IMG/VR virus record: IMGVR_UViG_2913112809_000003
Origin: a virus
Taxonomy: Duplodnaviria; Heunggongvirae; Uroviricota; Caudoviricetes
Length of the DNA: 47,567 nucleotides
Reading direction: 5' to 3' (one strand)
Shown piece after piece: positions 25,917 to 29,932 of the stretch. The first letter of the stretch is position 1. Every line of letters starts with the position of its first letter. The notes under the pieces are model-generated. The model saw nothing but the letters and a program-made list of their open reading frames with translations. It was not told the DNA's origin and did no database searches. The position numbers and the translations under genes are program-made.

Positions 25917-25968
25917 GTAAAAAAACAGCACCCAATCAAAGGCGCCCGCAGACGCCTTTTGTGTGGTG

Positions 25969-26121
25969 TTATTCAGATTTACGCAGTAAAGGCCGGAGCA
26001 CGACCAGCGCCATTGCCACCAGCACACCATCTGCCAGTACCGACATCAGCCGTCCGGTGAAATCCACCACCACTACCAGAAACAGCAGGATGGTAGCCAG
26101 CACAAGGCGCGCACATTTCAC
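25969..26121 (-). CDS. small hydrophobic peptide (50 aa) translationally coupled to the TerB-like gene
   Basis: GTG at 26121-26119 overlaps the TerB-like stop (TGA 26120-26118) with GGAG 8 nt upstream; encodes VKCARLVLATILLFLVVVVDFTGRLMSVLADGVLVAMALVVLRPLLRKSE. Confidence 0.35.
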   Translation of the reverse strand: MKCARLVLATILLFLVVVVDFTGRLMSVLADGVLVAMALVVLRPLLRKSE

Positions 26122-26543
26122 AGGTACTGCTCCAGCGGCAACTGCAGCGCCTGAGCAATTTTCTTGAGCTGTGTCTCCTCCTCCGGACCAATGCCATCCT
26201 GGTCAGCAATATCCAGACACAGGCACAGCACATTAACTGCGTCATCAGTACCGGCAACATCAGCCAGTTGACGAAGGGCTTCGGCATTGGCAGAACGAGG
26301 TGACGCCTCATAACGGGCGCGGATATTGGCACTCATCTGGGCAATCTCACCGGAGAACGGCGCAAAGGCAGGAAGTGCTGCAATGGTTTTCTCCAGTACC
26401 GCGATTTCTTTCGCATCACAAGTACCGTCGGCGAATGCAATGGAATACGCACCCCAGACAGTCGCCTCCACTGCATCGCGGTTCTCCATTTTCTTTACTT
26501 CAGTAATGGCTTTGCGGGTTTTCTTTTTGAAAATACCAAACAT
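26118..26543 (-). CDS. TerB-domain protein
   Basis: 141-aa ORF aligning with the TerB signature regions as recalled: AFADGTCDAKEIAVLEK and LDIADQDGIGPEEETQLKKIAQALQL. Confidence 0.75.
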   Translation of the reverse strand: MFGIFKKKTRKAITEVKKMENRDAVEATVWGAYSIAFADGTCDAKEIAVLEKTIAALPAFAPFSGEIAQMSANIRARYEASPRSANAEALRQLADVAGTDDAVNVLCLCLDIADQDGIGPEEETQLKKIAQALQLPLEQYL

Positions 26544-26723
26544 CGTGACTTTTCCTTTTAGTGGGTGAGCCTGCGCCCGGGGGTGACCAGCCCACAGAGA
26601 AAGTCACACTGACCATCCCGTAAGCTCACCCCTGAAAGGCTCTGTGGTTTTTGATGTGCGCCGGGCGTGGCGCGGAAATAAAAAAGGCCCGCCGTAGCAA
26701 GCCATGAAGAAACTGAATTCAGA

Positions 26724-26750
26724 ATAAAAAAAAACCGCCAGATATGGCGG
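26724..26750 (-). terminator. intrinsic terminator downstream of the tRNA genes
   Basis: Hairpin CCGCCA-tatc-TGGCGG followed on the minus strand by a T9 run. Confidence 0.55.
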
Positions 26751-27112
26751 TTGGTCAATGCATGAAATAAATCATTTTATTGTAATAAGAATCGAGGTGT
26801 CGGGTGCCTCCCGAAATATCCATCCCTACAACAGATATTGTGATTCCCCGCTAAACCACTATATAAACCACCCTCGCACTGAGGAACACCTCTTTAGTGT
26901 TATTTACAACACCGGGATAGTGCATCATCGGCCCTGCCAGGAAATAAAAAAATCTCCACCAATAATGCACCATTCCGTTGTTGTAAAAAAACAGCACTGT
27001 GACTACAACCGAACTCAAATCATAGCCAGAGAACAGAATGTCTTTTAAAAACAACCTGCCCCCACGTAACAAAAAATACGCCAGTGCCACGATACAATAA
27101 GGCTTGTTTCTC

Positions 27113-27192
27113 TGGAGCGGGTCGCGGGAATCGAACCCGCATCATCAGCCTAGAAGGTTGAGCTGAGGTAATAGCCATTATACGATACCCGC
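27113..27192 (-). tRNA. tRNA-like gene, 80 nt, anticodon ambiguous (best fit UCU, Arg)
   Basis: Canonical T-arm GCGGG-TTCGATT-CCCGC, acceptor stem of 6/7 pairs, encoded CCA; an anticodon loop CTTCTAG is only obtained with a mismatched stem and about 5 extra nucleotides 5' of it. Confidence 0.5.
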
Positions 27193-27195
27193 ATA

Positions 27196-27271
27196 TGGTG
27201 CCGGCTACCGGAATCGAACTGGTGACCTACTGATTACAAGTCAGTTGCTCTGCCTGCTGAGCTAAGCCGGC
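27196..27271 (-). tRNA. tRNA-Thr (anticodon UGU)
   Basis: 76 nt; perfect 7-bp acceptor stem, D-arm GCTC/GAGC, anticodon stem ACTGA/TCAGT with loop CTTGTAA, T-loop TTCGATT, encoded CCA. Confidence 0.85.
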
Positions 27272-27439
27272 ATTGGTTCCTCGGGGGAGCGATACCACCT
27301 TGAAGAGGAGTTCCCCTCAGAACCGCAGCGTATAATAACGAATAAAAAAAACACCTCAACTGAAATAATCCGAAAATATTCTCAGGATTAGTAATTATAT
27401 CTTTTATTTTTGCTCTGTTTAAATTTCAGAAATAAAAAA

Positions 27440-28486: not shown

Positions 28487-28625
28487 AGATCAATAAGCAC
28501 TTCTCTGATAGGCTCATACCGCTTTTGCGCAAAGCAGATGGGCCTGAGGTTTGCTTGTGACCCCAACGCATGAGCAGATGGCTGGCAGGTGCCGCTAACA
28601 CCCACCAGCCGCCCATTACCACAAA

Positions 28626-28649
28626 TTAAAAAACCTTCACTGCGGAAGG
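28626..28649 (-). terminator. intrinsic terminator
   Basis: Hairpin CCTTC-actgcg-GAAGG overlapping the upstream stop codon, followed on the minus strand by TTTTTTAATTT. Confidence 0.45.
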
Positions 28650-28837
28650 CGTCTGTAACAACCGAACTGATAATCTGCCAGACCCGCCATAACAAGCTGG
28701 GTCAGTATTAACTGGCAGCGTTCGCGTGAAAGGTAAGTATTCTGCGAAATTTCCCCGACGGTCGCCGGTTCGGTGACGCTTAATTCATTAAACACCACTC
28801 TGGCGGTTTCGGTCATATCCTGCTGTTTTAGCATGTC
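28637..28837 (-). CDS. small hypothetical protein, possibly winged-helix DNA-binding
   Basis: Start assigned to an internal ATG (MLKQQDMTE), about 66 aa; the annotated ORF extends further upstream; no recognisable family. Confidence 0.4.
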   Translation of the reverse strand, partial: DMLKQQDMTETARVVFNELSVTEPATVGEISQNTYLSRERCQLILTQLVMAGLADYQFGCYRRLPQ

Positions 28838-28955
28838 TTTTTCCCTTTTCTGGTTAACGTGACATACCAATAACTCTTGTCTAAAAAGCCAGCAAGCAAT
28901 AGATGTAAATGAGGTAAAAAATCAGCCCTGGCAGGATGGCTGGAATGTAACCTTG

Positions 28956-29672
28956 TTAATTGTTACCGATTTTACTTAACATATCCGCATAAGGTTCAAG
29001 CATGGAGTCAAGTAATGCGCCATTATCCGTAAACCTCCTGGCGGCCAGGTTGCATGCTTCAATAGATTCTTCGCAGTCCTTTTCAATTTTATCCTTCAGA
29101 AGAGAATAAAGTATAAATGTTATTTTTGTAGTCTTATAGGCGTTTTGCGACTTATAAGCATTATCAAAAAATTTTATATGGTTTCCATGAATATTTTGAG
29201 ACTCAAGGTTTAAAGCGATAGAAAAACACTCTGCTCTTGGCATAATAATATTTTCAATATTGGAGCAAATAAACTCCACATTATCGCCTTCGTTAAGGAA
29301 CTCTAGCTCACCTTCTGATTTCTTATCATAGTAAGCATAAAACGATTCAAATCCCCTATCACTATCCCTTAGCAGAACAAAAAATCTATCACCAAGACTT
29401 TGCTTAATTGCCCGGGCTGTTGAGTTTATGATGAATATATCTTTATACTTTTTCTTCGCTCTCAATTCATTATTATTGAAGTCGTCTATAATCTCACTCG
29501 CTGAATATCTTTTAAGTCCATCAAGATACTGGATAGCCATTGCTTGCCCTGTAGGCAAAAAAAATGAAAATGCCCTACTGTTACTGGCGCTTATGTATTC
29601 ATTACTAGTGGCATAACACTGAGATATCGATAGTGCAATAAAAAATGAAAACAGCTTAATTAGTTTATGCAT
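28956..29672 (-). CDS. AT-rich secreted protein of unknown function (moron)
   Basis: ATG at 29672 with an AGGTGA site; N-terminal signal peptide MHKLIKLFSFFIALSISQCYA; GC content far below its neighbours. Confidence 0.7.
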   Translation of the reverse strand: MHKLIKLFSFFIALSISQCYATSNEYISASNSRAFSFFLPTGQAMAIQYLDGLKRYSASEIIDDFNNNELRAKKKYKDIFIINSTARAIKQSLGDRFFVLLRDSDRGFESFYAYYDKKSEGELEFLNEGDNVEFICSNIENIIMPRAECFSIALNLESQNIHGNHIKFFDNAYKSQNAYKTTKITFILYSLLKDKIEKDCEESIEACNLAARRFTDNGALLDSMLEPYADMLSKIGNN

Positions 29673-29824
29673 AAATATCACCTATTGAAACAACGGATTT
29701 TCAATAGTAATGATATTCATCATTCCATAATTTGATATCAGTCAATAACGAATTGACATCTTTTAACGCATAGCAGCACACATTAACCAAGATTCACTGA
29801 TGAATGCCACCTGAAATCTATCAC

Positions 29825-29850
29825 AACAAAAAAACCCGCTCGGCGGCGGG
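29825..29850 (-). terminator. tR'-like intrinsic terminator downstream of the Q-like gene
   Basis: Hairpin CCCGC-cgccga-GCGGG followed on the minus strand by a T7 run, about 85 nt after the Q stop codon. Confidence 0.5.
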
Positions 29851-29892
29851 TTGTAGAAATCCTTCTAACGTCAGGCATAAAACGCCCATCGT

Positions 29893-29927
29893 TAGGGCAA
29901 ATTTACCACAGATTCGGGAAAAATCAA
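29893..29927 (-). promoter_or_regulatory. putative late promoter (pR'-like)
   Basis: Minus-strand TTGATT, 16-nt spacer, TAAATT, beginning 6 nt after the Q stop and about 50-65 nt upstream of the terminator. Confidence 0.4.
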
Positions 29928-29932
29928 CAACA

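Follow-up and report, generated by a model that had tools for sequence, protein, structure and literature searches.

What does a lambdoid prophage carry in the position where Shiga toxin (Stx) phages keep their toxin genes, and does such cargo stay silent until the late antiterminator Q acts? The question is raised by an interval of 4 kb between the Q antiterminator gene and the lysis genes of the viral record IMGVR_UViG_2913112809_000003, a stretch of 47,567 nucleotides (nt; hereafter the window) that represents an E. coli-type lambdoid prophage. The original prediction had regarded this interval as an island of late-expressed cargo comparable to that of Shiga toxin, with its units separated by terminators and silent in the lysogen unless Q-modified RNA polymerase reads through. 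The interval is very probably the late-operon leader of a prophage of the phiP27 or LT-II type, that is, a known insertion region for morons running from Q and its late promoter PR' to the lysis genes, in which at least four independently acquired modules are each bounded by terminators. The region downstream of the Q-antiterminated PR' has been described as an insertion site that tolerates the acquisition of morons (PMC4104026).

Organization of the Q-to-lysis interval

The minus strand carries all genes of the interval, as it does all real genes from 24.8 to 32.2 kb (Table 1). In the order of transcription they are Q, the gene of a secreted OB-fold protein, a winged-helix gene, a DNA methyltransferase gene, a threonine transfer RNA (tRNA-Thr), a second tRNA-like gene, TerB, DUF3927, two holins and an M15 endolysin. 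Open reading frames (ORFs), Pfam matches and the tRNA search bear out the predicted gene content, and the assignment of the interval to the lambdoid Q-to-lysis cargo position is supported by its surroundings. Q, whose relatives carry the annotation "antitermination protein", lies directly upstream of the cargo on the same strand, and the lysis cassette is followed, also on the minus strand, by the small (23052-23600) and large (21164-23119) terminase subunits, as expected of a late-operon leader. No stx ORF was found between Q and the lysis genes, the toxin position being filled by TerB-DUF3927, and the prophage is thus not of the Stx-converting type.

Table 1. Features of the Q-to-lysis interval, in the order of transcription (positions in the window).
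Feature	Position	Strand	Evidence
Q-type late antiterminator, 273 amino acids (aa), QuuQ-like, DnaJ-like CXXC zinc-finger stretch	29933..30754	-	Pfam Antiterm PF03589, E = 1.2e-50, two stretches
Candidate late promoter PR': -35 TTGATT (29927-29922), 16-nt spacer, extended -10 TGgTAAATT (29908-29900)	29900..29927	-	read from sequence
tR'-type intrinsic terminator	29828..29852	-	scan: 7-bp stem with 5 GC pairs, then T7
Low-GC insert (moron) with secreted OB-fold protein gene (coding sequence 28956-29672, 238 aa)	28898..29826	-	
Weak hairpin and T6 just 3' of OB-fold gene, possible insert terminator	28912..28942	-	fold: 5-bp stem, 10-nt loop, z = -1.5; missed by scan
Winged-helix-like protein, 65 aa from ATG, always paired with methyltransferase	28637..28834	-	Pfam TrmB, weak, E = 0.004; phrog_331, E = 2e-37
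Intrinsic terminator across winged-helix stop codon	28623..28650	-	scan: 6-bp stem then TTTTTAATTT; fold z = -0.8 (weak)
Orphan beta-class N6A/N4C DNA methyltransferase, 348 aa, DPPY ... FxGxG order	27440..28486	-	Pfam N6_N4_Mtase, E = 1.8e-44
Promoter-like site TTGAGG-16-TATTAT, about 55 nt upstream of tRNA-Thr	27332..27359	-	scan
tRNA-Thr(UGU), canonical	27196..27271	-	ARAGORN; Rfam tRNA 69.2 bits
Aberrant tRNA, 80 nt: tRNA-Gly(UCC) scaffold of relatives, anticodon now UCU (Arg), 5-nt insertion TCAAC 5' of anticodon stem	27113..27192	-	alignment, ARAGORN, Rfam
Conserved strand-specific RNA hairpin, about 95 nt, unannotated	26896..26991	-	minimum free energy -44.4 kcal/mol, z = -6.6
STnc100/PasD-like RNA tail, sub-threshold, ending at 26752 terminator	26722..26920	-	cmscan full-length alignment 20.7 bits against gathering score 47; E = 0.01 on short stretch
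Strong intrinsic terminator ending tRNA / structured-RNA unit	26724..26752	-	scan: 8-bp stem with 5 GC pairs, then T9
Second terminator, upstream edge of TerB module	26676..26703	-	scan: 7-bp stem then T6; pPE4 homology stops exactly at 26703
TerB-domain protein (TciA-type), 141 aa	26118..26543	-	Pfam TerB (PF05099) 30.2 bits against cut-off 24.4; phrog_632, E = 1e-64
DUF3927 / TciB-like peptide, 50 aa, two hydrophobic helices	25969..26121	-	Pfam DUF3927, E = 1.6e-14; phrog_1470 "TciB-like"
Two hairpin / T-run elements between DUF3927 and holin start (25876)	25891..25959	-	scan sites 25946-25927, 25916-25901; fold z = -2.6
Lysis cassette: holin (Phage_holin_8), holin (Phage_holin_3_7), M15 endolysin; downstream limit of cargo region	24838..25876	-	Pfam; order as in phiP27

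Mosaic boundaries and occurrence of the modules

Breakpoints between the window and its relatives fall at or beside terminators. Homology boundaries were located at 29845/28897 and 25973/25979 with respect to prophage E9, at 26703 with respect to the phage sequence pPE4 and at 26063/27488 with respect to phiP27, so that the TerB module extends from the terminator at 26703 to a downstream edge at 25973-25979. The occurrence of the modules was surveyed in 5,426 complete E. coli genomes, a module being counted at a coverage of at least 80%. The OB-fold insert was found in 9 genomes, the tRNA-to-terminator segment with the RNA hairpin in 142 (about 3%, and unannotated among the matches listed), TerB-DUF3927 in 153, and the winged-helix and methyltransferase unit (27440-28870) in 2,109, with up to 7 copies per genome. 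Frequencies thus lie more than 200-fold apart, and with their separate boundaries the units behave as the variable inserts that had been predicted. As in other late leaders, content varies among the relatives, here phiP27, SerU-LTIIb, PPyecE, SC407, E9, pPE4 and a Salmonella prophage.

The block might instead be the conserved core of a phage lineage, each of its genes being needed for lytic growth. The abundance of the winged-helix and methyltransferase unit, which is present in most Stx2 phages among the matches listed, points that way, as does the occurrence of the whole 4.4 kb in the same order and with 91-92% identity in SC407 and PSJ-22, the best E. coli matches. Against it stand the disparate frequencies and the fact that relatives swap modules for stx2e, for the SNIPE-like protein L22, for a toxin-antitoxin pair or for nothing, one Salmonella prophage passing from the methyltransferase directly to the holin. 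As each unit has its own boundaries and the frequencies are so unequal, the whole block is not conserved core, and we regard this explanation as highly improbable. What does hold of it concerns a single unit: the winged-helix and methyltransferase pair (27487-28897 in the comparison with phiP27, PPyecE and the Stx2 phages, to which it is common) is close to core for this phage lineage.

A probable replacement at the toxin position of phiP27

In megablast searches of GenBank phages, phiP27 and SerU-LTIIb were the best matches, followed by many Stx2 phages sharing the methyltransferase unit. phiP27 is 90-93% identical to the window in two stretches, 24845-26063 (from the lysis genes as far as the middle of DUF3927) and 27488-28897 (methyltransferase and winged-helix genes), and its genes are arranged in the order Q, L22, TrmB-like, methylase, tRNA-Ile, tRNA-Arg, stxA2e, stxB2e, holin, holin and endolysin. 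Since pairwise BLAST homology flanks this place on both sides, stx2e of phiP27 fills the place held in the window by the tRNA unit and TerB-DUF3927. The predicted analogy with Shiga toxin is therefore a literal one, phiP27 having stxA2e/stxB2e on the same flanking backbone and at the position of TerB-DUF3927. Also, phiP27 retains after stxB2e (3267-3361, equivalent to 25969-26063 of the window) a 3' fragment of DUF3927/tciB with a stop codon and a 1-nt deletion. On the strength of this remnant, we read the phiP27 arrangement as the result of a replacement of the TerB-DUF3927 module by stx2e in an ancestor of that phage.

Candidate late promoter and terminators

The stop codon of Q (29935-29933) is directly followed by the candidate PR' and then by the tR'-type hairpin, AACCCGCC-GCCGAG-CGGGTT followed by T7 (29852-29828); folding of 29820-29900 gives -25.5 kcal/mol (z = -2.5). 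Together, both elements would give rise to a terminated RNA of about 65 nt. In Stx phages, PR' is constitutive and its transcription is terminated at tR' in lysogens (PMC7547250). Of the E. coli genomes, 1,676 match the 100 bp that follow Q (29829-29930), most of them with 90-99% identity and 87 with at least 95%. Homology with E9 begins exactly at the -35 element of PR', this prophage having about 120 nt of extra leader ahead of the shared tR' terminator, and in both E9 and PPyecE the tR' hairpin is found upstream of the winged-helix gene.

A scan of 24000-31500 recovered 19 terminator-like sites, compared to 8.1 +/- 3.3 in shuffled sequences. The four terminators named in the original prediction were all among them (29852-29833, 28650-28633, 26752-26733 and 25916-25901), and the scan adds two more, at 26703-26686 and 25946-25927; altogether, the terminators beyond those four number at least three. 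Conservation of several of these elements extends to relatives that differ in cargo: the strong terminator ending the tRNA unit is kept in E9 and SerU-LTIIb with a variable loop, and the pair of hairpin and T-run elements ahead of the holin is kept in phiP27 downstream of stxB2e.

TerB-DUF3927 and its setting in P1

TerB shares 85.8% amino acid identity with TciA of phage P1 and belongs to the TerB/TciA family. The GTG start of DUF3927 overlaps the TerB stop codon (GTGA), and TerB is therefore probably coupled in translation to this TciB-like membrane peptide, the hydrophobic helices of which have positively charged ends. No other ter gene, such as terC, terD, terE or terZ, was found in the region, DUF3927 being the sole partner, and the pair is thus not part of a tellurite-resistance operon of the terZABCDE type. 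TerB homologs occur in Erwinia jumbo, Salmonella and Pseudomonas phages, which we take to be strictly lytic. In P1 (locus L007, 1499-5697), tciA and tciB lie downstream of the ban promoters, which are controlled by C1 operators, and no forward promoter is annotated before tciA; in our reading, they belong to the ban-promoter operon. No promoter-like site was seen in the 140 nt ahead of TerB in the window. The placement behind repressed promoters in P1, the presence of TerB in phages taken to be lytic and the lack of a visible promoter make a lytic-phase function of TerB-DUF3927 likely, probably at the inner membrane.

A copy of this end of the interval was observed in pPE4 (locus L006, PP818812.1, "Actinobacillus phage vB_Apl-pPE4"), where TerB, DUF3927, both holins and the endolysin (5839-7726) have 91.6% nucleotide identity to the window. 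The phage was deposited with Actinobacillus pleuropneumoniae as host and looks like an E. coli-type lambdoid phage, and its host assignment may need a check.

Are the modules silent in the lysogen?

In its strict form, the prediction holds that no unit has a promoter of its own and that all are silent in the lysogen and read by Q-modified polymerase only, as purely late cargo in the manner of stx2. Terminators flanking every unit fit this, and so does the consensus promoter scan, which showed no overall enrichment and, besides the empty stretch ahead of TerB, no promoter-like site in the 29672-29826 segment ahead of the OB-fold gene, although such a scan is blind to weak promoters and to those of other sigma factors, above all in AT-rich DNA. 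The position of P1 tciAB behind repressor-controlled promoters is in keeping with it as well, and stx2 of Stx phages is known to need PR' and Q (PMC7547250). The tRNA unit fits this less well. A promoter-like site precedes it, and the relatives have a -35/-10-like pair at the equivalent position despite differing sequence. In the Stx2a phage of strain Sakai, moreover, the tRNAs further downstream seem to be transcribed from a primary start located between tR' and stx2AB (PMC7547250), and morons are by definition often expressed autonomously in lysogens (PMC4104026, citing Juhala 2000). We thus consider the strict form rather unlikely. Silence in the absence of Q fits TerB-DUF3927 best, given its terminators on both sides, the missing promoter-like site and the P1 placement, and is doubtful for the tRNA unit.

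The OB-fold insert

The first module downstream of tR' adjoins this terminator on its 3' side; in E9 and PPyecE, a different sequence of about 60 nt takes its place. Its ORF (28956-29681) has a likely start codon at 29672 (ATG, with AGGTGA ahead of it), giving the 238 aa protein of Table 1, and a G+C content of 0.31-0.36 compared to about 0.5 in the flanks (about 0.45-0.57 in the DNA around the gene). Such a deviant composition is one mark of a moron in the strict sense of Juhala and Hendrix, the others being a promoter and a terminator of its own; for the insert, the scan gave no promoter-like site, and the gene is followed only by the weak hairpin of Table 1. Relatives are few: the close family comprises just 8 clusters at 90% identity among 5.8 billion proteins, and those with a named source come from E. 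coli and Salmonella. In Salmonella, the gene occupies the same place, the order being Q, OB-fold gene, a 67-aa protein, methyltransferase and holin.

An exhaustive profile search placed residues ~55-145 in a wide family, with matches to 197 representatives at E < 1e-3, which identifies the core as a homolog of the tRNA_anti-like OB-fold family PF12869, the protein's own Pfam score of 21.8 lying just under the 23.5-bit cut-off. An AlphaFold model from a 54-sequence alignment reached a predicted local distance difference test (pLDDT) score of 79 and shows an OB barrel between a signal-like helix at the N-terminus and a helical domain at the C-terminus; with the 9 close homologs only, the score was 35, and a good model needed the distant profile matches to be added. 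Fold matches in BFVD connected OB domains of the tRNA_anti-like type to a "host cell surface-exposed lipoprotein" of the Ltp type. Sequence searches of solved structures with the OB-fold profile and with TerB gave chance-level matches alone (anti-sigma factor, E = 0.046; PNPase, E = 0.009). Cysteines 136, 149, 200 and 207 are invariant or almost so, and together with the signal sequence MHKLIKLFSFFIALSISQCYA they suggest that the protein is periplasmic and held together by disulfide bonds. The gene favors AGA/AGG (9 of 10 arginine codons) and ACA (4 of 7 threonine codons), which are the codons of the neighboring phage tRNA types Arg(UCU) and Thr(UGU).

In phiP27 the slot after Q and tR' holds L22 (locus L001, 6838-8067) instead of an OB-fold gene. 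L22 is annotated as "GIY-YIG nuclease family protein", and its C-terminal half matches the PADLOC model PD-Lambda-1 with 298.7 bits (E = 2e-89). This defense system has been renamed SNIPE in a recent preprint and characterized as a membrane nuclease cutting phage DNA as it is injected (bioRxiv 10.1101/2025.11.03.685801). By analogy of position, L22 in this slot may serve as a lead to the function of the OB-fold protein.

Such findings raise the possibility that the region is mainly a hot spot of defense or superinfection exclusion, in which the OB-fold protein, possibly together with TerB-TciB and the methyltransferase, is expressed from the prophage and guards the lysogen against phages or colicins. 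The SNIPE-like L22 of phiP27 would belong to the same pattern as the ParE/HTH toxin-antitoxin pair in the tRNA slot of PPyecE_EH1910 (PPyecE), the DUF4145 protein with a weak PD-T7-4 match that lies beside DUF3927 in E9, the BFVD link to surface-exposed lipoproteins and the plasmid ter operons that the literature ties to phage inhibition and colicin resistance. The argument is nonetheless one of position alone; PADLOC returned no match for the OB-fold protein, TerB or DUF3927, and the latter two fit poorly with a function in the lysogen, TerB having homologs in phages believed to be strictly lytic and the P1 copies lying behind promoters that are repressed in the lysogen. As an account of the whole region this explanation is doubtful. 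A narrower version, to which we give somewhat less credence still, is that the slot after tR' may be a hot spot of genes whose products block phage entry at the envelope. The rare OB-fold protein, horizontally acquired and with a fold of the nucleic-acid-binding type, would then possibly be a new superinfection-exclusion factor, encountering incoming DNA or the machinery of injection within the periplasm.

The winged-helix and methyltransferase unit

The winged-helix homolog of phiP27 is named "TrmB family transcriptional regulator" in RefSeq. In the translation of the methyltransferase, the DPPY motif comes early and FxGxG late, and the protein matches the MTase_II model of PADLOC with 510 bits. 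No endonuclease ORF lies next to it, its neighbors being the 65-aa winged-helix protein and the tRNAs; it is therefore an orphan methyltransferase and not part of a Type II restriction-modification system. As a phage methyltransferase, it may methylate progeny DNA late in infection.

The tRNA unit

The expectation of two tRNAs in the interval has to be amended, the second one being aberrant: it is 80 nt long with a 5-nt insertion and scores 40.9 bits against the Rfam tRNA model (gathering score 29), compared to 69.2 for the neighboring tRNA-Thr. Its anticodon loop reads CTTCTAG in place of the CTTCCAA of relatives, and the ARAGORN model has a degenerate D arm and two mismatches. A canonical 73-nt version with the UCU anticodon is present in another prophage (locus L109), and the variant with the insertion was not found elsewhere in IMG/VR, which leaves a private mutation or an assembly error as possible sources of the TCAAC insertion. 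The second tRNA is probably impaired, or else the insertion is such an error.

The slot itself is variable in relatives, holding Thr and Gly tRNAs in SC407 and E9, Arg and Gly as well as Thr and Gly in SerU-LTIIb, and Ile and Arg in phiP27. In SerU-LTIIb a Thr(UGU) scaffold was likewise observed to have switched to Arg(UCU); switching of anticodons thus recurs in this slot.

A conserved RNA hairpin

The 550 bp between the tRNAs and TerB, where the earlier list of units had nothing, contain a conserved RNA hairpin. A pattern taken from its 5' arm retrieved it from 97 IMG/VR contigs, and in the loci that were checked, some 150 nt separate it from the tRNA pair upstream. When 26 distinct variants were aligned, standard pairs made up 98.7% of cells, compared to 35-57% in slid registers, and compensatory changes (GC/AU) were seen at three pairs; a portion of the 5' arm was set by the retrieval pattern, which limits the variation visible there. 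About one fifth of the paired cells are G.U, which on the other strand would be A.C mismatches, indicating that the structure exists on the transcribed strand alone and ruling out a palindrome at the DNA level. A coding function was also discarded, ORFs of 79 and 42 aa being broken by indels in relatives, and matches to microRNAs merely reflect the long hairpin. No Rfam family matches the hairpin, and neither AgvB nor AsxR was matched. At a guess, and with little weight placed on it, the hairpin could be an undescribed processing site, such as one for RNase III, or the precursor of a small RNA (sRNA).

The sequence that follows shares the core CGGGAGGCACCCG (within 26722-26920) with the sRNA STnc100. 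It does not qualify as a member of the STnc100 (RF02076)/PasD family, scoring 20.7 bits against a threshold of 47, a value that none of 8 related loci reaches. STnc100/PasD-type sRNAs have been reported from such regions, with TerB conserved near PasA/PasC and Q near PasD (Zhu, Shabalina and Storz 2026, preprint).

A model for late expression

These elements can be combined into a model. In the lysogen, PR' would fire constitutively and polymerase would halt at tR', leaving the RNA of about 65 nt only; the other terminators would keep transcripts that start within modules, most plausibly those of the tRNA unit, out of the holins. Upon induction, Q would load onto RNA polymerase at PR', and the modified polymerase would pass all six to eight terminators, every module then being co-transcribed with the lysis, head and structural genes. 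Under these conditions the methyltransferase would mark progeny DNA before packaging, the tRNAs would supply the rare ACA and AGA codons, TerB-TciB would act at the inner membrane in late infection and the OB-fold protein would act in the periplasm.

Several points weigh against this interpretation. PR', the read-through by Q and the promoter of the tRNA unit are all inferred at the level of consensus sequences, and promoter-like sites are no more frequent in the region than expected (12 compared to 10 +/- 3.4). Folding energy marks two of the terminators, at 28650 and behind the OB-fold gene, as weak. The argument from codon supply loses force if the second tRNA is not functional, as may be the case. 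No family in PADLOC (PADLOC-DB v2, E <= 0.01) or NCBIfam was matched by the winged-helix or OB-fold protein, by TerB or by DUF3927. Literature searches yielded no tested function for phage TerB/TciB or for the methyltransferase.

Other RNA elements of the window

Elsewhere on the minus strand, the window encodes two antitoxin RNAs. One is RalA (45833-46011; 219 bits against an Rfam gathering score of 170), the antitoxin sRNA of RalR as in the Rac prophage. The other is a sok RNA of the type I hok/sok system (33285-33457; 111 bits), which lies upstream of the Q-proximal genes and has counterparts in several related prophage loci.

Comparison with known systems

The region is of a well-described type and belongs to a non-toxigenic member of the phiP27/LT-II prophage group, with a mix of common and rare accessory modules. 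It adds no new system, and nearly the same arrangement is already present in RefSeq E. coli genomes. Nevertheless, this one window shows how non-toxigenic relatives fill the toxin slot of Stx and LT-II phages. What it does contribute are three details: the remnant of DUF3927 in phiP27, an OB-fold gene in the slot of SNIPE, and the conserved RNA hairpin. The remnant, if stx2e indeed replaced TerB-TciB, aids the reconstruction of the origins of toxin phages, and the rare OB-fold protein, presumably periplasmic, sits where the homolog of a proven anti-phage nuclease sits elsewhere.

With phiP27 (NC_003356; L21-L30), the window shares the lysis cassette, the TrmB-like and methyltransferase unit, gene order, strand and the terminator pair before the holin. 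It differs in having tRNA-Thr, the aberrant tRNA, the hairpin and TerB-DUF3927 where phiP27 has tRNA-Ile/Arg and stxA2e/stxB2e, the OB-fold gene where phiP27 has L22, and a Q of another type, that of phiP27 being shorter (126 aa). SerU-LTIIb (KU052038) resembles the window in its methyltransferase, in paired tRNAs on the same scaffold, in the hairpin segment and in its holins, at 77-87% identity. In contrast to the window, it is without TerB-DUF3927, its tRNA-to-holin segment is duplicated, and its toxin gene eltIIb follows the endolysin instead of preceding the holin.

The Stx2 phages (933W and Sakai Sp5) have in common with the window Q, a PR' that is constitutive and stopped at tR', a methyltransferase together with tRNAs ahead of the cargo, and cargo read by way of Q, features of which the promoter activity and the read-through are predicted in the window. 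As in the window, non-coding RNAs are embedded in the region (StxS, which is the PR'-tR' sRNA, and the anti-sRNAs AgvB and AsxR). The window has no toxin, no nanS-p esterase and a different lysis cassette. Its predicted terminated RNA would measure about 65 nt and StxS has its 3' end 258 nt downstream of PR'. STnc100/PasD resembles the RNA tail of the window in its Q-to-lysis location in Stx-like prophages, in aligning over its full length, in an identical 13-nt core and in the terminal terminator; the 95-nt hairpin upstream falls outside the RF02076 model.

OB-fold proteins and lipoproteins of PF12869, such as that of Klebsiella pneumoniae (PDB 3F1Z), resemble the protein of the insert in the profile matches to the 197 representatives and in the N-terminal secretion signal. 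The window protein adds a helical C-terminal domain with a second conserved cysteine pair, and has a site of the signal peptidase I type and not a clear lipobox.

Outside the lambdoid phages, the closest arrangement is that of P1, which reads dmt, tRNA-Asn, tRNA-Thr, tciA, tciB, tciC, tRNA-Ile and ban, and so has the methyltransferase, Thr(UGU) tRNA, TciA and TciB in the same order as the window. P1 is not lambdoid, and control there is exerted by the C1 repressor at Pban and not by Q; its methyltransferase is a different, bifunctional protein, tciC is extra, and nucleotide homology to the window is confined to tciA (79.7%). To judge from this shared order, a related module of methyltransferase, tRNA, tciA and tciB is common to lambdoid and P1-like phages.

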